Source: an uncultured Bacilli bacterium | Lineage (GTDB): Bacteria; Bacillota_I; Bacilli_A; RF39; UBA660 | Reading direction: 5' to 3' | NCBI GenBank assembly: GCA_944363675.1 | Contig: CALVUT010000035.1 | Location: forward strand, 1 to 47,303 | DNA length: 47,303 nucleotides | Shown: piece by piece, positions 41 through 29,774 of the stretch | How the letters are laid out: each line of letters begins with the position of its first letter | Numbering within the stretch: position 1 is the stretch's first letter | Notes under the pieces: model-generated | Told to the model about the DNA's origin: nothing | The model's input: only the letters and a program-made list of their open reading frames with translations | The model's database searches: none | Position numbers and translations under genes: made by a program

Positions 41-334
41 GTGTTAAAACGGCATTATATGTGCATAACTTTTATGATTATTGGAAAGTATTTTAACTAT
101 TTTTTATAAATTGTTTATAACTATTCATATTATATGAATTAATTTATAATGATTTTAAAGGACTTTGTTTTCTTTTTTCCACATATTCACATTATTGTGG
201 ATAATTTTATACACCATTTCAACTTAATCACATTTTTCTGAAAATAAAAATGTTGATAGTGTGGATAACTGCTTTTTTTCTTTTAAATACGGCATTTATT
301 TTGTTGATAACTTGTGAATAGTGTGTTAGGATAA
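41..334. promoter_or_regulatory. oriC left half: DnaA-box cluster and dnaA promoter region
   Basis: Perfect TGTGGATAA (reverse complement of TTATCCACA) at 196-204 and 260-268. TGTGCATAA (TTATNCACA class) at 60-68. One-mismatch boxes at 175-183 (TTTTCCACA) and 302-310 (TGTTGATAA). Lies directly upstream of dnaA. Confidence 0.8.
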
Positions 335-401
335 ATTTTGTTCTTTTAAATAGAACAAAAAAAGTGTAGAATATTGGTTATAAAGCGAGCGGGGTGGTGA
401 A

Positions 402-1787
402 ATGGAGCAAAAAGATCTTTGGCAATCTGTATTAGATGAAATCTATCCTGAAGTAAATTCGGCTTCATTTCATGCTTGGTTTCACGATTTAAAACTAATT
501 AAAATTCAAGATAATAAAGTGTATATTCAAGTGCCAATGGAAATTCACAAACGTATTTTAACAACAAATTACTATAGCTTGATCGATGATGCTTTTTATA
601 AAGTAACAAATCACAATTATGAATTTGAATTTCTCTTAAAAGAGGAAATAGGGGATGAGCTTTTACAACTTGAACCTATTGTGGATAATGTGGATAACTT
701 TGTTGTGGAAAAAAAGGAAGAGCCTTTAAATGATGAAAAGTGGGAAACGAATCTTAATCCTGAATTAAATTTTGATAATTATATTGTGGGTGATTCTAAT
801 CGATTGGCTAAGATTGCTGGGATGATTGTGGCTGAGCAACCGGGTAAAGTGCATAACCCTTTATTTATTTATGGAAAGAGTGGTCTAGGTAAAACACATT
901 TAATGCATGCGATAGGCAACTACATTGTTAGCCATTCTAAAAAAAAGGTTTTATACACAACAAGTGAAATGTTTAAAGATGATTATATAAGTATTACTAA
1001 TACCGAAAATGGAACTAGCAACATTCAAATTATGGCGAATTTTAAGAGAAAATATCGGGATGTAGACGTGCTTATTATTGATGATATCCAATATTTAGTA
1101 GGTGCCGAGAAAACGCAGCAAGAGTTTTTCCATACTTTTAATGCACTGCATCAAGCCAATAAGCAGATTATTATCAGTTCTGATCGAAGTCCTGATGATT
1201 TGAAACTGTTAGAAGAAAGACTTCGAAGTCGATTTATGTGGGGACTACCTGTGGATATTTATCCACCTGATTTTGAACTTCGGTGTGAAATAATTCGCGC
1301 AAAACTTAAGAACATGTCTATCTCAACTAAAATAGATGAAAATGTTATTGAGTATATTGCTAATAGTTGTCAAAATGATGTTCGTTTTCTGGAAGGAGCT
1401 TTAAACCGTTTAATGGCTTATACAGCAATGATTGTTCCCCCTAAAATTGATTTAAATTTTGCTATTGAAGCCTTAGCTGATTTTGTTAATAAAAATATTT
1501 ATAAGACTGATAGTATTGAATCTATTCAAAAAGCCGTAGCTGATTATTTTCATATACGGGTAGAGGATTTAAAAGGAAAAAGGCGTAGCGCGGATATTGC
1601 TTATCCACGGCAAATTGCCATGTATTTGTCACGTATTTTAACTGAAGAAAATTTAAACCGAATAGGGTTGGAATTTGGTGGAAGGGATCACTCGACAGTT
1701 ATTCACGCTTGTGATAAAATTGTAGAGGAACTTAAGGTGAATAAAACCTTAGAAAAACAAATTAAAGAAATTCAAAATAAGATGTAA
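402..1787 (+). CDS. dnaA: Chromosomal replication initiator DnaA
   Basis: 461-aa ORF. AAA+ Walker A GKSGLGKTHL, Walker B LIIDDIQ, C-terminal DNA-binding region RQIAMYLSR...GGRDHSTV. RBS GGGGTGGTG upstream. Confidence 0.98.
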   Translation: MEQKDLWQSVLDEIYPEVNSASFHAWFHDLKLIKIQDNKVYIQVPMEIHKRILTTNYYSLIDDAFYKVTNHNYEFEFLLKEEIGDELLQLEPIVDNVDNFVVEKKEEPLNDEKWETNLNPELNFDNYIVGDSNRLAKIAGMIVAEQPGKVHNPLFIYGKSGLGKTHLMHAIGNYIVSHSKKKVLYTTSEMFKDDYISITNTENGTSNIQIMANFKRKYRDVDVLIIDDIQYLVGAEKTQQEFFHTFNALHQANKQIIISSDRSPDDLKLLEERLRSRFMWGLPVDIYPPDFELRCEIIRAKLKNMSISTKIDENVIEYIANSCQNDVRFLEGALNRLMAYTAMIVPPKIDLNFAIEALADFVNKNIYKTDSIESIQKAVADYFHIRVEDLKGKRRSADIAYPRQIAMYLSRILTEENLNRIGLEFGGRDHSTVIHACDKIVEELKVNKTLEKQIKEIQNKM

Positions 1788-1925
1788 TGTGGATAAAAAA
1801 TTGCTAATGTGAATAACTATGCACATTAAAATTAGGTTGTAAAGCTAGTATTTATCGTCATTTTGAAAGTTATTCACATTATTCACATCATTATTATTAT
1901 GAATATATATTAATAAAATAAGAAA
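1788..1925. promoter_or_regulatory. oriC right half: DnaA boxes plus AT-rich candidate unwinding region (dnaA-dnaN intergenic)
   Basis: Perfect TGTGGATAA at 1788-1796. TGTGAATAA at 1808-1816. Two head-to-tail TTATTCACA boxes at 1870-1878 and 1879-1887, followed by TCATTATTATTAT (1888-1900) and an almost pure A/T tract up to the dnaN RBS. Confidence 0.7.
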
Positions 1926-3168: not shown

Positions 3169-3636
3169 ATGGAAAATTATGAAATTAATAACGAAACAAT
3201 GGCTTTGATTCCTTTGTCGAAAGGAAAAGTTAAAGTATTAGAGTATGATGAGGAGTTCATTTTGGATACAAATGCTACTCAAATTATGGAGGATAGCTGT
3301 CAATATTTTGGAAGTAGTTTGGAAGGAAGACGTAAGGGCACTGAAGTTATGATTGGAGTTAGTTATAAAGCACCTATTATTGTAGAGGAGACTTTTGAGT
3401 TAATTTTTTTTCCTCTTTCTTCTTCTCGTTATCACGATACACCTTGGATTAGTTTAAAATATGTGGATAAGTACTATAAAGAAGGAAAAAATGTTGTTTT
3501 GGAGTTTTTAAATGGCCGAAAAATTTTATTGGATGTTACTTTTGGTATTTTTGACAATCAACTTTTAAGAGCTACTCGGTTAGAAAGCGCTTTAAGAGGT
3601 CGAAAAGTACAAAAAAAACATTTTAACAGGCATTAA
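3169..3636 (+). CDS. ComK-family (competence transcription factor-like) protein
   Basis: 155 aa. By eye it aligns with B. subtilis ComK: SCQYFGSSLEGRRKGT vs SCRFFGSSYAGRKAGT; KAPIIVEETFELIFFPLSSSRYHDTPWIS vs KPPIMVDPSNQIFLFPTLSSTRPQCGWIS; FDNQLLRATRL vs FENQVYRTAWL. RBS AAGGGGG. Confidence 0.7.
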   Translation: MENYEINNETMALIPLSKGKVKVLEYDEEFILDTNATQIMEDSCQYFGSSLEGRRKGTEVMIGVSYKAPIIVEETFELIFFPLSSSRYHDTPWISLKYVDKYYKEGKNVVLEFLNGRKILLDVTFGIFDNQLLRATRLESALRGRKVQKKHFNRH

Positions 3637-6735: not shown

Positions 6736-9186
6736 ATGGATAAGCTTGAACAAAATAATATTGTCAGTGAAGTTAGTAAGTCTTTTGTTGACTACTCTGT
6801 AAGTGTTATTACTTCGCGTGCTTTGCCAGATTTAAGAGATGGCTTGAAACCTGTTCATCGTCGTATTTTATTTTCTATGTATCAATCTGGTTATACTTCT
6901 GATAAACAACATAAAAAATGTGCTCGTATTGTTGGAGATGTAATGGGTAAATTTCATCCACATGGTGATTCTTCTATTTATGAAGCGTTAGTACGCATGG
7001 CACAAGATTTTAGTTACCGTTGTCCTTTGATTGATGGACATGGAAATTTTGGTAATATGGATGGTGATGGCGCGGCTGCAATGCGTTATACTGAGGCTAG
7101 ATTGTCTAAAATTTCTGGTGAATTGTTAAGGGATATTGGAAAAGATACGGTGAATATGATTCCAAACTTTGATGAGTCAGAGAAAGAACCTGAGGTTTTA
7201 CCTAGTCGTTTTCCAAATATTTTGGTTAATGGAACAATGGGTATTGCTGTAGGTATGGCTACCAATATTCCGCCACATAATTTAGGTGAAGTGATTGACG
7301 GGTGCGTTGCCTATATTGATAATCCTGATATAGATACGCTTGGATTGATGCAATATATTAAAGGACCTGATTTTCCAACGGGAGCAACTATTTTAGGAAA
7401 TAGTGGTATAAAAAAGGCTTATGAAACCGGACGGGGAACAATTACTATTCGGAGTAAAGCAAGTATTGAAGAAAAGAATGGACGTTACCAAATTGTATTT
7501 GACGAAGTTCCTTATGGAGTTAATACGTTAGAGTTAAAGAATAAAGTTGCTGAACTTGTTCACAATAAAGTTATTGATGGTATTTCTGACTATCATTCCG
7601 ATTTAAAAGATGGAATAAAAATTACTATTACATTAAAGCGGGATGCAAATCCACAAGTTGTATTAAATAATTTATATAAACATACTTCTTTTCAAACTAC
7701 CTATGGTATAATTTTATTAATGATCGATCAAAAAGTTCCAAAAGTTTTGGGATTAAAAGAGATTATTAGTAAATATATTGATTTTCAAAAAGAGGTTATT
7801 ATTCGGAGAACTCGTTATGATTTGAAGAAGGCTGAAGATCGAGTTCATATTTTGGAAGGATTAAAAATTGCGCTAGATCATATTGATGAGGTCATTAAAA
7901 TTATTCGAGGTAGCAGAACTGATACTGATGCCAAACAGGCTTTGATGAGTCGTTTCGGACTTTCTGAAATTCAAAGTGATGCTATTCTTGAAATGAGATT
8001 GCGTCGTTTAACGGGGTTAGAAAAAGATAAAATCGAAGCTGAATTAGCTGAATTATTGAAAAAAATAGAAGAATATAAAGCAATTTTAGCAAGCGAGCAA
8101 TTGGTATTAGATATTATTAAACAGGAATTGTTAGAAATTAAGGATAAATATGCTGATGAACGTCGTACTAATATTGATATGACTGCTGTTGAGTATATTG
8201 AAGATGAGTCCTTAATTCCAGAGGAAAGTATCATGATTGCACTTACAAACAAAGGATATATTAAACGAACTGCTGTTGATACTTTTAAATCTCAAAATCG
8301 TGGAGGTGTTGGGGTTAAAGGTATGGGAACAAATGAAGAAGATTTTGTAGAACATTTATTGACTTTATCAACGCATGATTATGTTTTATTCTTTACAAAC
8401 AAAGGTAAAGTTTACCGTTTGAAAGGATATGAAGTTCCGGAATTTAGTCGTCAATCTAAAGGTATACCTGTTATCAACTTATTACAAATCGATAAAGATG
8501 AATCCGTTAACTCAATGATCAAGATAACCAGAGATGATCCTGCAAAATACTTATTGTTTGCTACTCGCAAAGGAATCGTCAAGAAAACGGCGATAGAAGA
8601 ATTTGAGAATATTCGTACGAACGGTAAAATATGTATTTCGCTTCGTGATTCAGATGAACTTATTAGTGTACGTAAAACTTCTGGTAATGATATGATTTTA
8701 TTAGGTTCTAGTGCTGGACGAATGGTAAAATTTAATGAAGATGCTGTTCGGGTTATGGGACGCACCGCTAGTGGAGTTCGCGGAATTCATTTAGATAATC
8801 AAGAGTGTATTGGGGCAGAAATTGCTACGGATGATGATAAAATTCTTATTGTAACTAAAAAGGGTTACGGAAAACAAACATTTGTTCGTGAATATAGACA
8901 AACAAGTCGCGGTAGCAAAGGTGTAAAGGCTTTAAATATTACTGATAAAAATGGTAGTATCGCAGCATTTAAACTTGTTGAAGACAATTCGGATGTCGTT
9001 ATTATTACAAATACAGGAATGTTAATTCGTTTACCTTTGCAACAAATATCTACTCTTGGAAGAGCTACTCAAGGAGTTAGACTTATTCATTTAAAAGATG
9101 AACAAACTGTATCTACTATAAGTATTGTTGTTCATGAGGAATCTAATTCAACGGATGAGGGCATTAGTATAAAAAAAGAAGATTAG
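6736..9186 (+). CDS. gyrA: DNA gyrase subunit A
   Basis: 816 aa. Active-site region [14 protein letters not shown]-like [17 protein letters not shown], repeated C-terminal beta-pinwheel blades. Confidence 0.98.
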
Positions 9187-9204
9187 TAAATCTTCTTTTT
9201 TTTT
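9176..9204 (+). terminator. Rho-independent terminator overlapping the gyrA stop
   Basis: AAGAAGATT (9176-9184) / AATCTTCTT (9189-9197) stem, 4-nt loop, then a T-run (9198-9204). Confidence 0.75.
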
Positions 9205-9222
9205 ATGTTTCACGTGAAACAT
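9205..9222. promoter_or_regulatory. parS site 1 (ParB/Spo0J binding consensus)
   Basis: The core 16 nt, TGTTTCACGTGAAACA, is the perfect palindromic parS consensus. Lies directly after the gyrA terminator. Confidence 0.85.
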
Positions 9223-9367
9223 TGTTTCTTTAAAATGCCTTTCTTAATAATAAAGCAAACAATTTAAACATAATTCTAATCTAATTTGTTTTATTGTATT
9301 TTTTAAATATTATATTAAAACGATATCACGAAACTTATAATAGGTTATATGCCTAAATGTTTATAAC

Positions 9368-9385
9368 ATGTTTCACGTGAAACAT
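9368..9385. promoter_or_regulatory. parS site 2
   Basis: Exact ATGTTTCACGTGAAACAT. Preceded by TGTTTATAA (9358-9366), a 2-mismatch DnaA-box-like motif. Confidence 0.85.
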
Positions 9386-9626
9386 ACAAATATAGATTTT
9401 TATGTAAGATTTATTGCTAATTAAAATGATGAAAAAAATTAAAGAGTTATTTTAAAAACAATTTGTATTAAAGTTTTTTTACATGATCTTATGTAAACAT
9501 TTATAACATGTTTGAGTGAAAATAAAGTCAATTATATAATTCAACAAAATTTTTACTTATTAAAAAACAGATGTATTTTATATTAAAACTATAATTTTAT
9601 GGATAAAAGCCCAATTGTGCATAACA

Positions 9627-9644
9627 ATGTTTCACGTGAAACAT
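9627..9644. promoter_or_regulatory. parS site 3
   Basis: Exact copy. TGTGCATAA (9616-9624, TTATNCACA class) ends 2 nt upstream. TATGGATAA at 9598-9606. Confidence 0.85.
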
Positions 9645-9813
9645 TGCAAGATTTTTATTTAAAAAACATTAAAATGTATAATCAGGATTTTGATCGATTA
9701 AAAATAAGCTATTTTTGATAAATATGAGCAATTTTTTTGATTATTATTATAAATTATTAATGTATTTTTTTTTAGAATGCATTTTATGGATAAATGCCTA
9801 TATGTGTATAACT

Positions 9814-9831
9814 ATGTTTCACGTGAAACAT
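9814..9831. promoter_or_regulatory. parS site 4
   Basis: Exact copy. TGTGTATAA (9803-9811) ends 2 nt upstream. TATGGATAA at 9785-9793. Confidence 0.85.
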
Positions 9832-9997
9832 AGTTATTGATCATTTTATTTTTTATTAAAAAAAATTAGAAATATAATCATATTTAAAAAATATATATTT
9901 TTATATTATAATTTATAAAATTTTGATATTTATCAATGTTTACTATAAAAAAAACATTTTGATTCTTTTGGGCTATTATCTTGGAAATGTGTATAAG

Positions 9998-10015
9998 ATG
10001 TTTCACGTGAAACAT
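9998..10015. promoter_or_regulatory. parS site 5
   Basis: Exact copy. TGTGTATAA (9988-9996) ends 1 nt upstream. Confidence 0.85.
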
Positions 10016-10271
10016 ACAAATATAGATTTTTATGTAAGATTTATTGCTAATTAAAATGATGAAAAAAATTAAAGAGTTATTTTAAAAACAATTTGTATTA
10101 AAATTTTTTACTATGATCTTATATAAACCAATATTATGTAAACGTTTATAACATGTTTGAGTGAAATATAAAGTCAATTATATAATTTAACAAAATTTTT
10201 ACTAATTAAAAACAGATGTATTTTATATTAAAACTATAATTTTATGGATAAATGCCTAATTGTGCATAACA

Positions 10272-10289
10272 ATGTTTCACGTGAAACAT
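10272..10289. promoter_or_regulatory. parS site 6
   Basis: Exact copy. TGTGCATAA (10261-10269) ends 2 nt upstream. TATGGATAA at 10243-10251. Confidence 0.85.
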
Positions 10290-10434
10290 TGTCATTGATT
10301 ATTTTACTTTTTCTTAAAAAAAATTAGAAATATAATCATATTTAAAGAATTTTAGATATATTTTTATATTATATTTTGTAAAATTTCGATATTTATCAAT
10401 ATTTACTATAAAAAATCTTGGAAATGTGTATAAG

Positions 10435-10452
10435 ATGTTTCACGTGAAACAT
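10435..10452. promoter_or_regulatory. parS site 7
   Basis: Exact copy. TGTGTATAA (10425-10433) ends 1 nt upstream. Confidence 0.85.
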
Positions 10453-10460
10453 TAGAGAGA

Positions 10461-10489
10461 TTGATTTTTTATTTAATCTTTGATATCAT
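10461..10489 (+). promoter_or_regulatory. Candidate sigma-A promoter of the SRP RNA gene
   Basis: -35 TTGATT (10461-10466), 17-nt spacer, extended -10 TGaTATCAT (10481-10489). The predicted transcription start is near 10496. Confidence 0.55.
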
Positions 10490-10495
10490 GTATTT

Positions 10496-10573
10496 GTGCA
10501 ACAAATATAATGTAATTTGGTCAGGATCGGAAGATAGCAGCCACGTCATTCCCTGTTTGTGTGCACTTTTTTT
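10496..10573 (+). ncRNA. ffs: Small (4.5S-type) signal recognition particle RNA
   Basis: GGTCAGGATCGGAAGATAGCAGCC matches the universally conserved SRP domain IV (E. coli GGUCAGGUCCGGAAGGAAGCAGCC) with a GGAA tetraloop. The 5' GTGCAACAAA pairs with the 3' TTTGTGTGCAC. A T7 run follows (10567-10573). In B. subtilis scr lies in the same tadA-dnaX neighbourhood. Confidence 0.75.
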
Positions 10574-10586
10574 ATGGGAGTTTATT

Positions 10587-10997
10587 ATGAAGAACTATTT
10601 TGATGTATGTATTGAAGAAGCAAAAAAAAGTTTGGATACAGGGGATGTTCCTATTGGCGCAATACTTGTGAAAGATAAAAAAATTATAGCATTTGGTCAT
10701 AATACACGTGAAAAAGAGCATAACATTTTAGGACATGCTGAAATTAATGTTATCAAGGATGCTTCTAAAATTTTAAGTCGTTGGAATTTGGCAGATTGTG
10801 AGCTTTATGTAACTTTGGAGCCATGTAGTATGTGTAAGGAAGTTATTAAGCAAGCTAGAATAAAAAAAGTTTACTATTTGTTAACAAAATTATCTTTCAA
10901 AAAAGAATATGATCGAACTAATTTTGAAAAAATAGACGGAGAAAACGAACTTATGTACGCTAAAATTCTTGCTGATTTTTTTAAGCAATTTCGTTAG
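10587..10997 (+). CDS. tadA: tRNA-specific adenosine deaminase TadA
   Basis: CDA-fold zinc motifs GHAEINVI and LEPCSMCKE. ATG 10587 sits 7 nt after GGGAG. The longer ORF-track start (10461) would overlap the SRP RNA. Confidence 0.9.
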   Translation: MKNYFDVCIEEAKKSLDTGDVPIGAILVKDKKIIAFGHNTREKEHNILGHAEINVIKDASKILSRWNLADCELYVTLEPCSMCKEVIKQARIKKVYYLLTKLSFKKEYDRTNFEKIDGENELMYAKILADFFKQFR

Positions 10998-12671: not shown

Positions 12672-12968
12672 ATGAATATGCAGAGTATAATGGCTCAAGC
12701 ACAAAGAATGCAAAGAGATTTACAAAAAAAGAAAGAAGAAATTAATGCTCAATTATTTCCCGGGAAATATGAATTTGTTGAAGTGACTTTGAATGGTAAA
12801 AAAGAATTAGTTAAAATTTCTATTCAAAAAGATTCTTTAGATAAAGAAGATATTGAAATGTTAGAGGATTTTATAGTTTTGGCTCAAAAAGATGCATTAG
12901 CTAAAGTAGATAAGGAATTTCAAGCAAAGATGGGGCAGTATGCTGGTATGCTTGATGGATTAATGTAA
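12672..12968 (+). CDS. ybaB: Nucleoid-associated protein YbaB/EbfC
   Basis: 98 aa. MQ-rich N-terminus (AQAQRMQRDLQKKKEE). Conserved dnaX-ybaB-recR synteny. Confidence 0.9.
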   Translation: MNMQSIMAQAQRMQRDLQKKKEEINAQLFPGKYEFVEVTLNGKKELVKISIQKDSLDKEDIEMLEDFIVLAQKDALAKVDKEFQAKMGQYAGMLDGLM

Positions 12969-15449: not shown

Positions 15450-16143
15450 TTGGCTTTTTGATTATCCCAATTTAAAAGTGTTTCAGTATGAAGAAGGTTT
15501 TAAATTTTCATTAGATTCTATTTTATTATTTGAGTTTGCACAGATAAAAAAAGATGACTATCAAATTATTGATTTTTGTACGGGTAATGCCGTTATACCT
15601 ATTTTGATTCAAAATAAATATAATAAATCTGTTATTGGTGTAGAATACCAAGAAAAAATATATCAATTAGCAAAAGAGTCCGTGCAATATAATCATATGG
15701 AAAAAGAGATAACACTTATTCAAGATAATGTAAAAGATCTAAAAAATTATTTCCCGGGAAATAATTTTGATGTTATTTTATGCAATCCACCCTATTTTAA
15801 ATATGTGGAATCTAGTAATATTAATAAAAATCTTATTAAAAGTATTGCGCGTCATGAGATCTGTATAACATTAAAAGATATTTTTGAAGTAGCAAGTTTT
15901 TTCTTAAAAGATAAAGGAAGATTTTATTTAGTGCATATTCCTGACCGTATTGATGAAATCTTTGTTTATGCTAATCATTGTGGTTTAGCTGTAAAAGAGC
16001 TACAATTCGTTTATTCTAAGGCCGATGAAAAGCCTGTAATGGTTTTAGTTACTTGCGTTAAGGGAGGACGTTTTGGAACTCGAGTTTATCCACCAGTAAA
16101 TATTGGAGGGTTACAAAGTTACCAGGGAATTTTTAGAAAGTAA
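15430..16143 (+). CDS. SAM-dependent N6-adenine methyltransferase (YabB/TrmN6-like)
   Basis: DFCTGNAV SAM-binding motif I and catalytic CNPPYF motif. Confidence 0.75.
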   Translation: MMNKTLNWLFDYPNLKVFQYEEGFKFSLDSILLFEFAQIKKDDYQIIDFCTGNAVIPILIQNKYNKSVIGVEYQEKIYQLAKESVQYNHMEKEITLIQDNVKDLKNYFPGNNFDVILCNPPYFKYVESSNINKNLIKSIARHEICITLKDIFEVASFFLKDKGRFYLVHIPDRIDEIFVYANHCGLAVKELQFVYSKADEKPVMVLVTCVKGGRFGTRVYPPVNIGGLQSYQGIFRK

Positions 16144-19930: not shown

Positions 19931-19976
19931 ATTTTAAAGCTCCGTTCACAATAGTTGTAGAATGGAGTGTATTTCT

Positions 19977-20483
19977 TTGAAAGAGACTGGAATTATTCGA
20001 AAAATTGATGAACTGGGAAGAATTGTTTTGCCTAAAGAAATTCGAAAAAGTTTAGGTATAAAAGATGGAGAGGATTTAGAAATATTTGTAAGGGATAGAG
20101 GAGTTTATCTTCAAAAGTATTCTCATTTGCTCAATATGACAGATATTCTAGAACCGCTTTGTTGTTTAGCTTATGAAGTAATGGGATTAAAATTTATCGT
20201 TACTGATCGTGAAAAAGTTATTACAGCATTTGATTCATCTTTAGTTAATTTATCTATTTCTTCTTCTTTAGAAGAATTTATCCTGAATCGTGAAAGTTAT
20301 ACGGCTCATCAACCTGTACAATATTTTGATTTAAATGGGTATTTTTATATTGAGCCTATAAATGTTTCGGGGGATATTATGGGGTTAATCCTTTTATATC
20401 AAGAGCAACCTTTTCTTTCCTATATGATAGATTTTACGCATTTTCTTGCTAAAATTATTGTAAATAAAATTGACATTCTTTAA
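19977..20483 (+). CDS. spoVT: Stage V sporulation regulator SpoVT-like (AbrB-type N-terminus plus GAF-like C-terminus)
   Basis: From TTG 19977 the product reads MKETGIIRKIDELGRIVLPKEIRKSLGIKDGEDLEIF, against B. subtilis SpoVT MKATGIVRRIDDLGRVVIPKEIRRTL. ~170 aa. Lies directly after mfd, as in B. subtilis. Confidence 0.75.
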   Translation: MKETGIIRKIDELGRIVLPKEIRKSLGIKDGEDLEIFVRDRGVYLQKYSHLLNMTDILEPLCCLAYEVMGLKFIVTDREKVITAFDSSLVNLSISSSLEEFILNRESYTAHQPVQYFDLNGYFYIEPINVSGDIMGLILLYQEQPFLSYMIDFTHFLAKIIVNKIDIL

Positions 20484-20496
20484 TTTTATGTTAGAA

Positions 20497-20702
20497 TTAG
20501 GGTATTCAATGGTGAAGGAAAGAGTATATAGTAATTCTTTTTTTAGAGAGCTTATGATTGGTGAAAATAAGTAAAGGGTTATTATGGAAGATGGTTCTGG
20601 AGTTGAAACGTATTTCTGCGTTAGAGAGAGAGTGCATGAGACAATCATGAAATAAGGTGGTACCACGGGTTTTAACTCGTCCTTATATTCATGATTTTTT
20701 TA
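20497..20702 (+). promoter_or_regulatory. T-box leader (Met specifier candidate) controlling metG
   Basis: AGAGAG bulge and GGTGAAA distal-loop motifs. AUG at 20584-20586 lies on the 3' side of stem I. Conserved T-box GGTGGTACCACG at 20656-20667. Terminator arms 20645-20658 / 20681-20695 plus a T-run. Confidence 0.85.
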
Positions 20703-20746
20703 TTTAAATTATTTCCCGGGAAATAATTTGGAGAGGATGGATATAT

Positions 20747-23148: not shown

Positions 23149-23802
23149 ATGTCATTAGTTTATGAACCTACTGCAGCTAAAAATTGGGCAAATGCAGTAG
23201 TAGAATGTTTGAATGGAGGCCCTGCTAGTGTTAAAGGTTGTTCAATGAAGTTTAATGAACAAATTGAAAAGTTAGTTCAACCTAATGTTTGGACCGGTGC
23301 TGCAGCTGCACAAAACTTTCAAAATTTTATGGATACTCACAACGCATTAATTCATTTTGCAAATGAATTTGGATCATCTTTTTCACAAGCTATGATGGAT
23401 GTTGCTAAAAGTATAGCTGATTTAGAGGTGGCTAATTTAGGAGCAGATACAACTGTTTCTTCAAATTTTGGACAATTAAATTATTCCCAAATTACGGAAA
23501 TGAGTGCTGCTAATATAAATAAGGAAGTTGTTACTTACGATTATGGTGTTATTAGCGAGATTGGTTCTGCTTTAGCTTCTATTAAAGGCAATTTGGAAGA
23601 TGTTAAGACCAAATTGGATTCAGAACTTTCTAAACTTAATAGTGGTTCAGGCATTTGGGATGGTAATGCTGCAGAAGGCGCTAAAGAGACTTTGACTAAT
23701 GTTTTAAATACAAATATGAGTCAAATCTTTGAAGCTTTAAATACGTGTATAAGTAATATTTCTGCTGCTGCTGAAGCCGCACAAATGGCAGATCAAGGTT
23801 AG
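23149..23802 (+). CDS. Fused tandem WXG100-like protein (two WXG modules in one chain)
   Basis: 217 aa, all-helical composition. First motif VWTGAAAAQNF, second IWDGNAAEGAKE, about 110 residues apart. Strong RBS GAGAGGAG. Its own terminator follows. Confidence 0.75.
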   Translation: MSLVYEPTAAKNWANAVVECLNGGPASVKGCSMKFNEQIEKLVQPNVWTGAAAAQNFQNFMDTHNALIHFANEFGSSFSQAMMDVAKSIADLEVANLGADTTVSSNFGQLNYSQITEMSAANINKEVVTYDYGVISEIGSALASIKGNLEDVKTKLDSELSKLNSGSGIWDGNAAEGAKETLTNVLNTNMSQIFEALNTCISNISAAAEAAQMADQG

Positions 23803-23812
23803 TTGTATGATT

Positions 23813-23837
23813 AAGTAGCTTTTTAGCTACTTTTTTC
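23813..23837 (+). terminator. Rho-independent terminator after the double-WXG gene
   Basis: AAGTAGCT / AGCTACTT 8-bp stem, TTTT loop, T-run. Confidence 0.8.
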
Positions 23838-23891
23838 TTTGTCTAAAATTAAAGTCGTGATATAATTGTTTTAGAATAAGGAAGTGGGTAA

Positions 23892-26800
23892 ATGAAAATT
23901 GTTATATTTTTTGATGATTCGAAAACTTTTCAAATTTACAATCTTCCGAAGATTATTGACGGTAATTACTGGGTGACTTATCAAGATGAAGATGGAAATA
24001 AGAAAAATTTTTTAAATGTTTATGCGTATAATAATCAATGGGTTTATGAGGATGATTATAAGCAAATTGTAATTCTTCCTTTTCGATACTATAAGGTAAA
24101 AGAAACCTTTTTTTATACTATACCTTTGTATGATGAATCTTTAAAGTTGTATTCTGTGCAAGGATTGGATACGTTATCTTTTGGAAAAAGTAAAGGAGAT
24201 ATTCAAGCTGATTGTTTTGGTGAAGCGACAATTACTTTAAATAAGAAAGGTAATCGCTGGTTGATTCAGTGTGATAAGGCAAATTTTCGAATGTATATTA
24301 ATCAAAAAATTGTTACTGGTAAACTTTTAGAACCAACAGATAGTATTTTTTTAAATGGGATGACTTTATATGTTTTAGCAGAGTATTTAATTTTTAATAA
24401 TCCTCAGAATATTGTTCATATTGAAAATAGTAAAATCGTTTTGAAAGAAATTCCTTCTATAGAAGAGACGACAGAAACTTTAGATGATAAAAGTATTTAC
24501 GAGAAAAAAGATTATTTTTATCGTTCGCCAAGATTTCGAAATGTTATTGAGGAGGTACAAATTAAAATTGATTCGCCACCCGCATCGCCAGTAAAAGAAG
24601 AAATGCCTCTTTTACTTCAAATGGGCGGCATGCTTACTATGGGTATGAGTTCGATGGTTACACTTTTTGTTTCAGTTAGTGGTCTTGCTAGTGGTGAAAG
24701 AGATTTTATGAGCGTATTACCTTCTTTAGTTATTGGGGTAAGTATGCTTGTAGGTATGCTTTTAATTCCGACTTTGTCTAGACGTTATCAAAAGAAAAAA
24801 TCGCTTGAACAAGAGAAACTTAGACAAGAAAAGTATTTGGAATACTTAGCTGCCAAGAAAAAAGAAATTCATCAAGTTATAGAGGATCAACAAACTAGAT
24901 TGAATGATAATAGTGTTTCTTTGGAAACTTGTGAGGATATCATTCTTCATCGTCGAAGAAATTTATGGGAAAGAAAAATAGAACATGATGATTTTTTATC
25001 TGTTCATATCGGTATTGGGGAAATACCAGCTAAGATAAAAATAAGTTTTCCAGAAGAGCATTTTTCTTTAGAAGATGATAGTTTAAAAAATGAATTGTTT
25101 AAAATGGCTGATGAACCTCGTAACTTAAAGAATGTACCTATTAATGTTTCTTTTGTTGAAAAAAATATTTGTGCTATTTTAGGTAATATTCAATTAATTC
25201 CATCTTTTTTAAATTCTATTTTATTGCAATTTATTACTTTTCATAGTTATGAAGATGTAAAATTTGTTCTTTTGACTTCTGAAGCTACGTCTTCAAAATG
25301 GGAGGACATGAAAGAAATTCCTTATTTATGGAATAATGATCGAACTATGCGTTATTATGGGGAAACAAAAGAAGATAAGTTTGCTATTTTGAATACTTTA
25401 TTTGAGGTGTATAAAAATAGACGCTATGCAGATGAAGATTATTCTAAAGAATCTGGAAATGATTATAGATCTTTTTTGCCTTATTATGCTATTATTACAG
25501 ATGATTTTGAATCTATTCGAGACTCTGATTTTGTTCGAGCTGTCATGAAGAATAAAACGAATTTTGGGTTTAGCTTTTTGATTATAACACATCGATTAAT
25601 GGGGCTTCCTAATGAATGCAATTCGTTTATTAACGTAGATGCAAATCAATCTGGAATGATAGAAAATGAATTATCTTCAGATAAACAGTTGGTATTTCAA
25701 GCAGAATTTTTAAACAAACCATTGACAGATTGTTACCGAATGATCAGTAATATTCCTATTCCTTTGGCTTCGGCGAAAGGACGTTTGCCTGATACTATTA
25801 GTTTTTTAGAAATGTATAATGTTGGTAGGGTTGAGCAGCTTAATGCACTTAATCGTTGGAATACGAATCATCCTTATGATACTTTGGAAGCGCCTGTTGG
25901 TGTAGACAGTAATGGTAGTTTGTTTATGCTTGATTTACATGAAAAAGCTCATGGTCCGCATGGATTGGTTGCTGGTATGACTGGTTCTGGTAAAAGTGAA
26001 TTTATTATCACTTATATTTTGTCTATGGCAGTTAATTATCATCCGGATATGGTTTCGTTTGTTTTAATCGATTATAAAGGTGGAGGTTTAGCAGGAGCGT
26101 TTTATAATCCTGATACTGGAGTTCGGCTTCCTCATTTAGCAGGAACAATTACAAATTTGGATACCGTCGAAATTAAGCGTAGTTTAGCTTCTATTGAAAG
26201 TGAACTTAAACGTCGTCAAAGGTTGTTTAATGAGGCACGTCAACAAACAAATGAAAGTACAATGAATATTTATAAATATCAAAAGTTATATCAGGAGGGT
26301 GTTGTTAAAGAACCTATTCCACATTTGTTTATTATTAGTGATGAGTTTGCTGAACTTAAGAGTCAGCAGCCAGAGTTTATGGCTCAATTAATTTCTACTG
26401 CGCGTATTGGACGTTCTTTAGGCGTGCATCTTATTTTGGCTACACAGAAACCTAGTGGTGTTGTTGATGCACAGATTTGGAGTAATTCAAAGTTTCGTGT
26501 TTGTTTAAAGGTTCAAGATCGCAGTGATTCTATGGATATGATAAAGGTTCCGGATGCTGCAGCATTGACTGATGTAGGAAGATTTTACTTGCAAGTCGGG
26601 TATAATGAATTTTTTGCTTTAGGGCAATCAGCGTGGTGCGGAGCTCCGTATTATGAAATGGACGAACGCAAGTCTAAAGTTAATTCGTCTTTAGATTATA
26701 TTAACAATGTTGGTAAAGTTTTAAAATCTATTGAACAAGAAGATGTTTCTAAGAAATTACAGTATAAAGGTGAGGAATTGCCTGCTATATTGAAATATCT

Positions 26801-28439
26801 TTCTGATTTGGCTGATAAATTGCATTTAAAGCCTTCCACTCTTTGGCTTCCTAGTATTCCAGAAGTCATTTATGTAGATAATTTAGCATCAAAATATCAT
26901 TATGAAGTAAAACCTTATGTTTTAGATGAGATTGTAGGAGAGTATGATTCACCATCAACGCAGTCGCAAGGCTTACTTACTTTACCTATTTCTGCGGAGG
27001 GAAATGTTTTAATTTATGGTTCTGCTGGTTCTGGTAAGGAAAATTTTTTGACGACTTTCTTATATACGGCTATGGCTCATCATAGTTCTTTAGAAGTTAA
27101 TTTTTATATCTTAGACTTTGGGGCTGAAACACTTAATATTTTTGCTCGTGCTCCTCATGTTGGTGATGTAATTTTATCTGATCAGGATGATAAAATTGTT
27201 AATTTGTTTAAGATGCTCAATCAAATGATTGATGACCGTAAAAAGAAATTTATGCAATTTGGTGGTAACTATAATTCATATATTCTTAAAAGTGAGGAAA
27301 AGTTGCCCAATGTTGTTGTTATTATTAATAACTATGATAATTTTAAAGAGTTGTATCCAGATTATGATGAGGAATTAGTTTCTATTACTAGAGAAGCTTC
27401 GAAGTTTGGTATTTACTTTATTTTGTCCGTTGTTGGTTCAAATAGTGTACGATTAAAATTGCAACAAAACTTTAAGCAGTTACTTACTTTACAAATGAAT
27501 AATGTCGATGATTATAATACTGTTTTAGGAAATGTTCGAAAAATGACTCCTTCTAAGAAGTTTGGTCGTGGCCTTATCCGATTAAACGGAAATATTTATG
27601 AGTTTCAAACAGCCTATGCTTTGGAAAAAGATAATTTATCTTCTTTGTTAAGTGATTTTGTTGATCGTTTAATTGAAAAAGAAAAAACGAAAGCTTTGAA
27701 AGTTCCAGTGTTACCTGATCATGTTTATTATAAGAATCTGGGTGTTTTATCTACTTTGAGACAAGTTGTTGTTGGTGTAGAGAAAAATTCATTGGATGTG
27801 GCTACTTATAATTATGAAAGTAGACCAATTCATGTCATAACGGGATTAGAACTGGAAAAAATGTTACCTTTTTTGAAAGGAATGATGGAATCGTTTTCTT
27901 CAATTCATAATCAATTACTTTTTGTTCTTGATGGTGAAAAGCTTTTTGCTAAAACTGATGTTAAGACAAATTATTTTTATCAAAAGAATTTTGATAAAGT
28001 TTTGAAAAGTGCTAGTGAGTATATATTAAAACTAGATGAGGATTATCAAAAGTATAAAGATGATGAGCGAGTAAAAAGTTATACTCATTTAACTTTATTT
28101 ATTATCGGTGTTGACTCTTTTTTAAGTCAAATTAATGCCTCTTTACAGTCTTTTGAGGAAATGATTGAGAAGGGAAGTGCTTTGGATAAGATTTCTGTAA
28201 TTCTTGTTGATGCTGCCGATGTAATTAAGAAACATGATTTTGATTCTTGGTATAAACGATTTAATTCAAATAGCCAGGGCATTTGGGTTGGATATGGACT
28301 TACGGATCAATATGTGATTAAGTTATCTAGAACACCTAAATTCTGTTATGAAGAAATTTCAAATAAATTTGGCTATGTTGTTCGAAATGGTATTCCAATT
28401 CAGATTAAGTTGCTAGAAGGAGAAGATAATCATGAATAA
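23892..28439 (+). CDS. essC: Type VII secretion FtsK/SpoIIIE-family ATPase EssC
   Basis: 1515 aa. Soluble N-terminus, then two hydrophobic helices (LLLQMGGMLTMGMSSMVTLFV; VLPSLVIGVSMLVGMLLIPTL). D1 has an intact Walker A GMTGSGKSE and Walker B FIISDEFAE. D2 P-loop is GSAGSGKEN (Lys followed by Glu). No recognisable P-loop in D3. Confidence 0.95.
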   Translation: MKIVIFFDDSKTFQIYNLPKIIDGNYWVTYQDEDGNKKNFLNVYAYNNQWVYEDDYKQIVILPFRYYKVKETFFYTIPLYDESLKLYSVQGLDTLSFGKSKGDIQADCFGEATITLNKKGNRWLIQCDKANFRMYINQKIVTGKLLEPTDSIFLNGMTLYVLAEYLIFNNPQNIVHIENSKIVLKEIPSIEETTETLDDKSIYEKKDYFYRSPRFRNVIEEVQIKIDSPPASPVKEEMPLLLQMGGMLTMGMSSMVTLFVSVSGLASGERDFMSVLPSLVIGVSMLVGMLLIPTLSRRYQKKKSLEQEKLRQEKYLEYLAAKKKEIHQVIEDQQTRLNDNSVSLETCEDIILHRRRNLWERKIEHDDFLSVHIGIGEIPAKIKISFPEEHFSLEDDSLKNELFKMADEPRNLKNVPINVSFVEKNICAILGNIQLIPSFLNSILLQFITFHSYEDVKFVLLTSEATSSKWEDMKEIPYLWNNDRTMRYYGETKEDKFAILNTLFEVYKNRRYADEDYSKESGNDYRSFLPYYAIITDDFESIRDSDFVRAVMKNKTNFGFSFLIITHRLMGLPNECNSFINVDANQSGMIENELSSDKQLVFQAEFLNKPLTDCYRMISNIPIPLASAKGRLPDTISFLEMYNVGRVEQLNALNRWNTNHPYDTLEAPVGVDSNGSLFMLDLHEKAHGPHGLVAGMTGSGKSEFIITYILSMAVNYHPDMVSFVLIDYKGGGLAGAFYNPDTGVRLPHLAGTITNLDTVEIKRSLASIESELKRRQRLFNEARQQTNESTMNIYKYQKLYQEGVVKEPIPHLFIISDEFAELKSQQPEFMAQLISTARIGRSLGVHLILATQKPSGVVDAQIWSNSKFRVCLKVQDRSDSMDMIKVPDAAALTDVGRFYLQVGYNEFFALGQSAWCGAPYYEMDERKSKVNSSLDYINNVGKVLKSIEQEDVSKKLQYKGEELPAILKYLSDLADKLHLKPSTLWLPSIPEVIYVDNLASKYHYEVKPYVLDEIVGEYDSPSTQSQGLLTLPISAEGNVLIYGSAGSGKENFLTTFLYTAMAHHSSLEVNFYILDFGAETLNIFARAPHVGDVILSDQDDKIVNLFKMLNQMIDDRKKKFMQFGGNYNSYILKSEEKLPNVVVIINNYDNFKELYPDYDEELVSITREASKFGIYFILSVVGSNSVRLKLQQNFKQLLTLQMNNVDDYNTVLGNVRKMTPSKKFGRGLIRLNGNIYEFQTAYALEKDNLSSLLSDFVDRLIEKEKTKALKVPVLPDHVYYKNLGVLSTLRQVVVGVEKNSLDVATYNYESRPIHVITGLELEKMLPFLKGMMESFSSIHNQLLFVLDGEKLFAKTDVKTNYFYQKNFDKVLKSASEYILKLDEDYQKYKDDERVKSYTHLTLFIIGVDSFLSQINASLQSFEEMIEKGSALDKISVILVDAADVIKKHDFDSWYKRFNSNSQGIWVGYGLTDQYVIKLSRTPKFCYEEISNKFGYVVRNGIPIQIKLLEGEDNHE

Positions 28440-28683
28440 GGTTTTAGTGACTATTAAGGTATTACGTTTAAATGAAGAATTTGAAGTATTTTTACCTGTA
28501 AACAAAAAAATTGTAGATATTATCTGCATGTTGGTTAAATCTTTAAACGAGCTTACTAATGGAGTTTTTCCATTAACTTATAGTAATCTTTTGTATGATA
28601 TTGATCAAGGTATTTTTTATGATACTTCTTTGTCACTTAAAGATGCTGGGATTGACAATGGAAAAAAGTTGATTTTGATTTAA
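28432..28683 (+). CDS. esaB: YukD/EsaB-like ubiquitin-fold T7SS protein
   Basis: 83 aa. The ATG overlaps the essC stop. C-terminal LKDAGIDNGKKLILI is typical of YukD-like proteins. Confidence 0.75.
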   Translation: MNKVLVTIKVLRLNEEFEVFLPVNKKIVDIICMLVKSLNELTNGVFPLTYSNLLYDIDQGIFYDTSLSLKDAGIDNGKKLILI

Positions 28684-28722
28684 TTTAATGCTATCCTTTA
28701 TATAGGATAGTAGATGATAAGA

Positions 28723-28750
28723 CTCTCTATCTTTTTAGGGAGTTTTTTTT
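28723..28750 (+). terminator. Candidate terminator between esaB and the effector module
   Basis: CTCTCT / AGGGAG stem (one G-U pair), 8-nt loop, T8 run 28743-28750. Confidence 0.5.
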
Positions 28751-28759
28751 AAAAGGTAG

Positions 28760-29062
28760 ATGATTTTTGTGGAGGTTTATGTTTGTAAAAGTAAAATGAA
28801 GAAAGCTAGTTTTCAAATTAAAGAAAGTGCTTCTGCGATAGATAAGATTGTTTCGGAACTTATGGAAACTACAAATGTTCTTGGAAATGCTTGGCAGGGT
28901 AGTGATTATGAATTTTTTAAGCAAAAAATTACACAAGAATATCAAAATAACTTAACTGAATTTACTCAGAGATTAAAAGAATATGCGGTGTATTTAGAGA
29001 ATGCTTCTAATGCTTATCAAAAACTTGAAGATATTTTTAAGGATAAAGAAATTGAGGTGTAA
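28760..29062 (+). CDS. WXG100-like small helical protein
   Basis: AWQGSDYEFF central WXG motif in a ~90-100 aa helical protein. The start is ambiguous: ATG 28760, GTG 28769 or ATG 28796. Confidence 0.75.
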   Translation: MIFVEVYVCKSKMKKASFQIKESASAIDKIVSELMETTNVLGNAWQGSDYEFFKQKITQEYQNNLTEFTQRLKEYAVYLENASNAYQKLEDIFKDKEIEV

Positions 29063-29065
29063 TAA

Positions 29066-29356
29066 ATGAACAAGTTTGATTATGTTCAAGTGGATACAGC
29101 AATATTAGAATATCGTTCTTTAAGTAATCGCATGGATGCTGAGTTGGCAGCGTTAAATGAAGTTTTAAAAGTATTGCAAGGGGAATCCGTTTGGGCAGGT
29201 GAAGCACATGATTATTTTGAAGAATCTTATTATAAATTAATGAGTGTCTCTGATGATTTATCTATTGCTATGAAAAATATTGCTTTATATGTTCAAAAAA
29301 TATCGGATAATTATAAAAAATTAGAAGAAGGTATTTCTTTGAGAATGGAAGGTTGA
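29066..29356 (+). CDS. WXG100-like small helical protein
   Basis: 96 aa with a central VWAGEAHDYF motif. Tightly packed with its neighbours. Confidence 0.75.
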   Translation: MNKFDYVQVDTAILEYRSLSNRMDAELAALNEVLKVLQGESVWAGEAHDYFEESYYKLMSVSDDLSIAMKNIALYVQKISDNYKKLEEGISLRMEG

Positions 29357-29357
29357 A

Positions 29358-29759
29358 ATGGCATTTGAAAATGTTGATGTTCAAAGAGTTCGTTTGTCTT
29401 TAAAAGCACTTAAAAATTCTTTAATAATTAATGAAGAACAAATGATATTTGATTCAATTTGTAGTGAAAATAATTTTAAGACTTTGGCTAACGATCCTTT
29501 AAAAAAAGGATTGAAAAAGTTGCTTGATGAACGTTATGGCGAGTTGTCTTCTTTGATAGATATTTATCAAAAAATTGTTGATTATGTTGAGGAGTATCAA
29601 AAGTTAGATAAGGAGGTTTCACGTTTAGAAAGAGAAATTGATGATGAATACGATGATGAAGATCCTAGTTATTCTAAAATTCGAAGATTAAAACGAGAAA
29701 AAGCTAATTGTTTAAATCGAATGGATGAAATTGTTAGTACTGTAGATAGTATGATTTAG
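29358..29759 (+). CDS. Small helical protein with an acidic tail (candidate effector partner or chaperone)
   Basis: 133 aa, no WXG motif, coiled-coil-like with EREIDDEYDDEDPSY. Starts 1 nt after the preceding stop, directly upstream of the giant ORF. Confidence 0.6.
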   Translation: MAFENVDVQRVRLSLKALKNSLIINEEQMIFDSICSENNFKTLANDPLKKGLKKLLDERYGELSSLIDIYQKIVDYVEEYQKLDKEVSRLEREIDDEYDDEDPSYSKIRRLKREKANCLNRMDEIVSTVDSMI

Positions 29760-29774
29760 TAAGGAGGTACTTTG

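Follow-up and report, generated by a model that had tools for sequence, protein, structure and literature searches.

What is a tight cluster of chromosomal parS sites doing in the short spacer behind gyrA, and which protein reads it? The question is raised by a 47,303-nucleotide contig of an uncultured Bacilli bacterium (GenBank assembly GCA_944363675.1, contig CALVUT010000035.1), hereafter the window, in which an initial annotation described seven perfect parS sites in the intergenic DNA downstream of gyrA; the spacer ends at the small signal recognition particle (SRP) RNA gene. Comparative sequence analysis suggests that the array is probably a hypervariable chromosomal centromere, at which CTP-dependent ParB clamps of the canonical Spo0J type would nucleate and load.

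The 18-mer ATGTTTCACGTGAAACAT matches the window exactly seven times (Table 1), where none is expected and none was found in 100 dinucleotide-preserving shuffles. All seven copies are perfect matches to the 16-bp chromosomal parS inverted repeat TGTTNCACGTGAAACA. Their start-to-start distances (163, 259, 187, 184, 274 and 163 bp) are irregular, and the array has 5.6 sites per kb. The number, positions and spacings given in the initial annotation are confirmed by this count. A search for degenerate copies of the kind that it had proposed for the whole genome, allowing up to two mismatches from TGTTTCACGTGAAACA, found no further site in the 47.3-kb window. Sister contigs of the same species, which cover some 20 kb leftward of dnaA, have no parS-like site there either. 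Allowing three mismatches to TGTTNCACGTGAAACA adds only four unrelated loci in the window, each with three mismatches. In the approximately 67 kb surveyed around oriC, parS is confined to the one spacer between gyrA and the SRP RNA gene, and the description of the sites as canonical, origin-proximal and non-coding chromosomal parS is upheld.

The array lies 7.4–8.7 kb to the right of oriC. The distance of about 7.4 kb claimed earlier is sound, since the GC skew switches sign at dnaA (measured on sister contig L001) and perfect DnaA boxes are found on both sides of that gene. The sister contigs, which come from other samples, encode a DnaA identical to that of the window. The gene order in the window is dnaA–dnaN–comK-like–recF–gyrB–gyrA. 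The ComK-family gene between dnaN and recF (3169–3636; PF06338, E = 2e-38) occupies a place held in B. subtilis by a small S4-like gene.

The 1.3-kb spacer contains no open reading frame longer than 43 amino acids and, except for the SRP RNA that ends it, no Rfam match even at E ≤ 1; a non-coding RNA within the spacer was rejected for want of such a match. GC content is 16% in the inter-site spacers, as against 30% in the window. Promoter-like matches number 17, compared with 17.9 expected, and separate promoters for the individual parS sites were rejected on that count. Because gyrA has its terminator before parS-1, the promoter-like site of the SRP RNA gene follows parS-7, and promoters between them are at chance level, the spacer appears to be a transcriptionally quiet, AT-rich island. 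Downstream of the SRP RNA gene come tadA and then dnaX. Gene callers place the start of tadA at 10488, overlapping the SRP RNA gene; the ATG at 10587 is likelier and gives 136 residues fully covered by the deaminase domain.

The array is not peculiar to this genome. A search with GyrA yielded 80 species representatives, all uncultured gut metagenome-assembled genomes (MAGs), or 81 genomes with the window species. The representatives are labelled 'Bacilli', 'Tenericutes' or 'Erysipelotrichaceae' and include CAG-710, CAG-884, CAG-877, Candidatus Fimihabitans (placed by NCBI in Mycoplasmatota incertae sedis) and Candidatus Faecimonas; we take these relatives to belong to GTDB order RF39. With parS defined as TGTT[T/C]CACGTG[A/G]AACA and at most one mismatch, the 81 genomes contain 341 sites between the gyrA stop codon and dnaX (83 kb) and 5 in the other 1.32 Mb, or 4.10 versus 0.0038 per kb, an approximately 1000-fold enrichment. 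The motif is thus nowhere near as dense elsewhere in the sequence surveyed, whereas comparable density elsewhere is a circumstance that the initial annotation had named as telling against a ParB platform. Comparison of the gyrA–tadA interval among relatives, which it had also suggested, reveals parS at the same locus in all 50 complete loci, with at least two sites in 48, at least three in 39, at least five in 22 and at least seven in 10. The median is 4 and the maximum 14 sites per complete locus, so the seven of the window place it in the upper fifth of the clade without making it unique. The order gyrA – spacer – SRP RNA – tadA – dnaX is likewise conserved. Presence of the sites at a shared position in each relative whose locus is complete is the signature that would be expected of a main ParB loading site.

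Conservation at the sites is not shared by the DNA between them. Nearly all variation among the clade sites is T/C at the known degenerate position 5, and some species carry the variant TGTTCCACGTGGAACA. Because position −1 is A in 96% of the sites, the conserved palindrome is 18 bp long. In the nearest species (L007), gyrA and tadA are 88% and 86% identical to those of the window at the DNA level, while the array is unalignable (best high-scoring segment pair 103 bp, 76%) and nevertheless has 11 parS sites. Because spacers cannot be aligned while parS sites stay perfect, selection appears to act on the 18-bp sites and not on the spacers. Distances between sites in the clade run from 34 bp up to about 800 bp and peak sharply at 37–41 bp, and one species (L013) has 14 sites with a 40-bp period. 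The spacers of the window are of two types, arranged B-A-B-B-A-B. Type A spacers are long (241 and 256 bp), 91% identical to each other, and contain one decayed parS copy each; type B spacers (S1–S2, S3–S4, S4–S5 and S6–S7) are short (145–169 bp) and 62–78% identical. Two spacer types together with decayed copies are the signature to be expected of repeat units that arise by segmental duplication and die by decay.

If established ParB biochemistry applies, each parS would gate the opening and closing of a ParB dimer around the DNA, and the clamps would slide about 1–2 kb outward. Seven gates in 1.25 kb would multiply the rate of loading and produce a single, very dense ParB complex beside oriC, with the terminator on one side and the promoter on the other keeping the array clear of transcription. 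Given that the origin region shows no ParA, the main output would likely be to load SMC condensin at a specific site and to organise the origin, as happens in S. aureus and S. pneumoniae. The array would evolve by birth and death of its units, through segmental duplication, unequal exchange and decay of single sites, with selection on the 18-bp palindromes only.

The initial annotation regarded the dense layout as plasmid-like, but as an exceptional feature this does not hold. A metagenome scan for at least three perfect parS sites at spacings of at most 64 bp recovered at least 120 contigs with tight arrays (L099–L218), from 26 to 73% GC. Among the matches listed, 84 of 120 have a soj and/or spo0J homologue of chromosomal type on the same stretch, with the array typically about 140 bp upstream of soj, and several (L102, L118 and L196) have 10–17 sites. 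Because tight chromosomal arrays are widespread, the impression of a plasmid-like oddity is mostly removed, and because they are normally coupled to canonical parAB, the reading of arrays as ParB loading sites is supported. None of the 120 array contigs listed belongs to the window clade, as judged by matching clade proteins against them. One of the matches listed, L181 (30% GC), has a canonical ParB; we take its gene context to be clostridial-looking, and it was not used as bait. A form that is very common among the matches listed, especially in gut contigs of 50–57% GC, has three perfect parS sites in 94 bp; the cluster precedes soj-spo0J by about 140 bp and is about 5.3 kb away from dnaA. 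Perfect chromosomal parS doublets 34–64 bp apart also occur in 101 contigs of the IMG/VR viral collection (L219–L319), with a ParB homologue nearby in one; these may be mobile elements borrowing the ParB of their hosts. What distinguishes the array described here is its position between gyrA and the SRP RNA gene, the absence of an adjacent parAB, the extreme turnover, and the packing in of other sites.

The array has much in common with the parS sites of B. subtilis and other Firmicutes, namely the identical 16-bp palindrome, T/C variation at position 5 and proximity to the origin. In B. subtilis the sites lie mostly inside genes. Here, in contrast, seven sites occupy 1.25 kb of non-coding DNA with none in the surrounding 67 kb, the clade palindrome is extended to 18 bp by an extra A/T pair (96%), and neither spo0J nor soj is nearby. 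The four strongest B. subtilis sites are 5–39 kb apart (PMC5815017). Caulobacter crescentus has several strong parS sites clustered about 8 kb from its origin, and clustering was proposed to raise local ParB, spreading being only about 2 kb per site (PMC5815017). That cluster differs in having about one site per kb, in or near essential genes beside parAB, with an essential ParA, whereas the present array is intergenic at 5.6 sites per kb with no parAB in the region. The sopC centromere of F (12 × 43 bp) resembles the array in its direct repeats, each with one palindromic ParB-type site, and relatives of the window species have periods of 37–41 bp; the differences are the chromosomal parS sequence, the irregular spacing of 163–274 bp and a parAB operon that is not adjacent. 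Repeats as regular as those of sopC are seen in L013 and not in the window, which has two unit types, and the dnaA–dnaN–recF–gyrBA context with no ParA or ParB adjacent is that of a chromosome and not of a mobile replicon. S. aureus and S. pneumoniae are also Firmicutes with origin-proximal parS and no ParA, but their sites are dispersed, 4–5 in number, and their ParB has been identified, whereas here there is a single array and ParB is not among the genes found. The parB gene of S. aureus lies away from noc. That species has ParB and Noc without ParA; its ParB acts mainly in loading SMC, and the arm-alignment signal is sharper when there is a single parS locus (PMC12479847).

The initial annotation was right about the parS array but overlooked two other classes of site, DnaA boxes abutting parS and Noc-binding sites (NBS) nearby. 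In the window, five of the seven parS sites are abutted at a distance of 1–3 bp by DnaA boxes matching the consensus TTATNCACA, all on the minus strand, and the repeat unit can be written TGTGNATAA–parS. Five consensus and three one-mismatch boxes within 850 bp form a cluster above chance. Across the clade, 247 parS sites have 31 consensus boxes at a distance of 40 bp or less (shuffles: mean 1.7, maximum 7), and 14 of 65 species have a box near parS (shuffles: mean 1.6, maximum 7), figures that are uncorrected for relatedness and for duplicated units. The geometries of box and site are fixed; a perfect TTATCCACA, for example, abuts parS in both L037 and L056.

These boxes raise the possibility, which we hold tentatively, that the array is additionally or mainly a replication-control element in which DnaA boxes coupled to parS titrate or position DnaA or link DnaA to ParB. 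The co-orientation of the five consensus boxes beside parS-3 to parS-7, the three weaker boxes 18 bp beyond, the enrichment in the clade and the recurrence of fixed geometries all point in this direction. DnaA is also reported to bind at the Caulobacter centromere. B. subtilis has clusters of several co-oriented consensus boxes, intergenic and a few kb from oriC, which differ in that the boxes predicted here abut parS and belong to the repeat unit; those clusters restrain initiation and interact genetically with spo0J (PMC3245932). The boxes occur in only about one-fifth of the species, however, and hence the array can exist without them; units that arose by duplication, and species that are related, do not count as independent observations, and 9-mers in DNA of 16% GC are weak evidence for predicted boxes. 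A DnaA function is in any case compatible with a centromere and does not exclude it.

The identity of the parS reader is less straightforward. A cognate ParB was assumed in the initial annotation, but a search of about 67 kb around oriC and of 1.73 Mb of clade sequence found no ParB-family gene other than one of the Noc type, and no ParA. The gene, with ParB_N and HTH_ParB domains, was seen near gidB on sister contigs, and full-length proteins were reached through a neighbouring HipA-like gene in a sister species (L089, 410 aa) and in the window species (P0120, 423 aa). Among solved structures the protein best matches Geobacillus Noc (7ng0, 196 bits), followed by Thermus Spo0J (177) and B. subtilis Spo0J (165). 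Its score against the NCBIfam Noc model TIGR04285 (278 bits) is under the 315-bit cut-off and above that of the generic ParB domain (180). Specificity in ParB and Noc is set by four residues (Jalal et al. 2020, PMC7383237). Noc has Q173, K179, K184 and R201, a single lysine at 179 or 184 being sufficient as the permissive residue; known parS binders have R173 and G201, with R173 in all parS-specific variants of a mutational scan, and dual parS/NBS binders usually carry T or S at 201 (PMC7383237). The 120 clade proteins examined are without exception Q-K-N-R, and their GERR box is intact. Among the best 150 family representatives, none has R173; 142 have Q, K and R at 173, 179 and 201, and the other 8 differ at one of these. 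By these residues, and with Noc as its closest relative by profile, the gidB-adjacent protein belongs with Noc, and it is predicted to read NBS and not parS. Proteins of this type are 400–700 aa long, with 150–300 aa of low-complexity sequence inserted between the helix-turn-helix and a conserved C-terminal domain, and the family comprises 150 or more clusters at 50% identity, almost all of them Q-K-x-R. Most apparently start with MNT(D/E)QK, which makes a Noc-like N-terminal membrane helix uncertain.

The genome has sites for such a protein. Three perfect NBS 16-mers occur in the window, where 0.24 would be expected even at two mismatches, and in this 30% GC genome they show what appears to be an active Noc–NBS system. 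Two lie in genes (ybaB-like and a methyltransferase) and one between a T-box leader and metG; none is inside the array of the window. The array sites themselves are not NBS: their position 2 is G and their position 7 is A; parS and NBS differ at 4 of 16 positions. The clade loci contain 115 perfect NBS 14-mers, at a density of 0.87 per kb in gyrA–dnaX versus 0.045 elsewhere, a 19-fold enrichment uncorrected for relatedness and duplicated units. NBS are present in the gyrA–dnaX spacer of 23 of the 50 complete loci, always alongside parS. In CAG-710 (L037:12470–13360) the unit NBS – TTATCCACA – parS is present in three copies; NBS and parS alternate in L049 (12500–12694, 66-bp period) and in L067, and NBS adjoins parS in L056, L072 and L082. 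No description of such co-arraying was found in the literature searched. The clade thus resembles known Noc–NBS systems in its Q-K-x-R protein with a GERR box and its perfect NBS 16-mers, and differs in that the array sites are parS, the homologue is 400–700 aa long with its low-complexity insert, and relatives co-array NBS with parS. Half-sites fall into discrete classes (570 parS-type, 226 NBS-type and 6 hybrids), and no site combines the two classes, an observation in favour of two separate readers.

Several observations weigh against a canonical ParB as the reader of the array. No ParB with R173 and G201 was found in the window or in 20 kb to the left of dnaA, within ±10 kb of gyrA in 80 species, in the surroundings of the Noc-type gene (seven loci, five clade members) or in the best 150 family representatives. 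The sole ParB-family protein found is Q-K-N-R, which the published residue rule predicts to be NBS-specific (PMC7383237), and 1.73 Mb of clade sequence contains neither a second ParB-family gene nor a ParA. The 10 kb beyond noc has GH3, PBP, argS, prfA, prmC, spoIIR, mntP and murA and no soj or spo0J, and neither gene is present around noc in L035 or in the divergent members L320 and L321. A Soj-sized ORF of 253 aa beside noc in L035 was rejected as a short-chain dehydrogenase. The region of a HipA-like homologue (P0010) is non-syntenic and has no ParB, and nothing on ParB in RF39-like bacteria was found in the literature. Finally, to call the array the main or the only centromere is an extrapolation from about 67 kb of this genome. 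The proposal that it is the main ParB platform of the chromosome thus gains from the exclusivity and conservation of the locus and loses from the finding of only a Noc-type gene in the origin region. Since the two half-site classes argue for two readers, we infer that the genome encodes a canonical ParB outside the sequence surveyed and that this protein binds the array and loads SMC there.

An unlikely alternative is that the clade has no canonical ParB, and that the array is the target of the long Noc-type protein, whose specificity would be dual or shifted, or of an unrelated protein; the spacer would then be the landing pad of a single ParB-family protein serving both centromere and nucleoid-occlusion roles. 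Consistent with this, the ancestral gidB–noc–soj–spo0J locus retains only the Noc-type gene in every clade member examined, the clade sequence lacks a second family member and a ParA, and NBS are enriched in the very spacer that holds parS, alternating with it in several species. However, all 270 family members examined have Q or another non-R residue at 173, whereas parS binders always have R173 (PMC7383237), and the unmixed half-sites speak for two readers. The ParB search, moreover, covered origin-proximal sequence only, and S. aureus has both ParB and Noc with no ParA (PMC12479847).

The palindromes could also be RNA or DNA hairpins, acting as terminators or insulators, or dispersed repeats like repetitive extragenic palindromes or miniature inverted-repeat transposable elements; three sites score as terminator-like through a T-rich run after the palindrome, and the units are repeated. 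These roles are effectively excluded, being very improbable given that the parS hairpin is weak (−5.5 kcal/mol, z = −1.75), that gyrA has its own strong terminator, that the exact parS sequence is kept across about 80 species while the flanks are not, and that the repeats occur at a single fixed locus.

Arrays of this kind do break short-read assemblies, and contig ends fall inside the gyrA-downstream spacer for 31 of the 81 genomes, roughly 40% of the MAGs surveyed; an assembly artefact is nonetheless effectively excluded, almost to certainty, because assemblies from independent samples carry the array (seven sites at 99.7% identity in L002, eight in L001) and arrays are present in 50 of 50 complete loci. 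The eighth site of L001 belongs to an additional unit close to the gyrA end, so copy number is polymorphic within the species at 7 or 8. Four further contigs of the same species end inside the array. In practice the arrays are a systematic short-read breakpoint just after gyrA, and site counts from MAGs are therefore lower bounds.

Table 1. Features of the gyrA–SRP RNA spacer and its surroundings. Coordinates refer to the window unless a contig is named.
Feature	Coordinates	Strand	Remarks
oriC region (context)	196–1796		Perfect DnaA boxes at 196, 260, 680, 689 and 1788, flanking or within dnaA; those at 196, 260 and 1788 are on its two sides
gyrA	6736–9186	+	Left boundary of array
gyrA intrinsic terminator	9171–9204	+	14-bp hairpin and U9; −12.2 kcal/mol, z = −5.2
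Non-coding gyrA–SRP RNA spacer	9187–10484	none	Houses entire array; ORF, Rfam and composition checks
parS-1	9205–9222	none	Perfect 18-bp palindrome ATGTTTCACGTGAAACAT, immediately 3' of gyrA terminator
parS-2	9368–9385	none	Perfect match
parS-3	9627–9644	none	Perfect match
parS-4	9814–9831	none	Perfect match
parS-5	9998–10015	none	Perfect match
parS-6	10272–10289	none	Perfect match
parS-7	10435–10452	none	Perfect match; 9 bp upstream of putative SRP RNA promoter
Duplicated unit 'A', parS-2 to parS-3	9355–9644	+	Paralogue at 9985–10289 (parS-5 to parS-6)
Decayed parS copy ATGTTTGAGTGAAAAT	9508–9523		Within long S2–S3 spacer; upstream flank of parS-2 retained
Decayed parS copy	10153–10167		Within long S5–S6 spacer; paralogue of 9508–9523
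One-mismatch DnaA box TTATCCATA	9598–9606	−	18 bp upstream of box at 9616; paralogues at 9785–9793 and 10243–10251
Predicted DnaA box TTATGCACA	9616–9624	−	Consensus TTATNCACA; 2 bp from parS-3
Predicted DnaA box TTATACACA	9803–9811	−	Adjoins parS-4
Predicted DnaA box TTATACACA	9988–9996	−	Adjoins parS-5
Predicted DnaA box TTATGCACA	10261–10269	−	Adjoins parS-6
Predicted DnaA box TTATACACA	10425–10433	−	Adjoins parS-7
Promoter-like site before SRP RNA gene	10461–10489	+	TTGATT, 17-nt spacer, TATCAT with preceding TG; consensus match only
Small SRP RNA gene	10485–10583	+	RF00169, 54.5 bits; right boundary of array
tadA	10587–10997	+	Deaminase domain at residues 3–136 from ATG at 10587
Perfect NBS TATTTCCCGGGAAATA (context)	12754–12769; 15748–15763; 20710–20725		Outside array
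Noc-type gene in the lineage	L095:10001–11272 (P0120); L089:1048–2280; L035:1033–2637

Other features of the window and its relatives are as follows. A type VII (ESX/Ess-like) secretion cluster at 23149–39000 includes WXG100 proteins, a 1515-aa EssC-like FtsK/SpoIIIE ATPase, YukD, DUF4176 and a protein of 2713 aa that matches nothing in Pfam. Upstream of metG, at 20503–20687, is a T-box leader (RF00230, 113.7 bits). Sporulation genes are present in a lineage usually described as genome-reduced and Mollicutes-like: spoVT-like, yabG, spoVG, yabP, yabQ and spoIIR (window 19962–20483 and 40375–42389; L095:18868–19374), with a small acid-soluble spore protein and spoIVA in a relative (L092).

The array is of a known kind, the chromosomal parS cluster; what is new is an array at a fixed position that is hypervariable, uncoupled from parAB and built of composite units. 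Centromere expansion, and the differences between species in the number and spacing of sites, have been called an open question (PMC5815017). The clade is a natural series at one locus, from 1 to 14 sites at spacings of 34 to about 800 bp and with polymorphism within a species, and this makes effects of dosage and spacing on ParB loading directly testable with natural sequences. It is conceivable, and no more than a minority view on our part, that the gyrA spacer is a fast-evolving origin organiser, in which parS, NBS and DnaA boxes share units; in a lineage whose examined origin-proximal sequence shows no ParA, ParB clamps and membrane-binding Noc clamps side by side would tether the origin, organise it and couple it to DnaA. 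The complete absence of a canonical ParB, with the Noc-type protein having taken over the centromere, would, if true, be the extreme version of such an organiser. Neither the coupling of parS to DnaA boxes and, in relatives, to NBS, nor an origin region whose sole ParB-family gene is of the Noc type and which shows no ParA was anticipated from model organisms. Together these features suggest cross-talk among segregation, nucleoid occlusion and the initiation of replication in this lineage.

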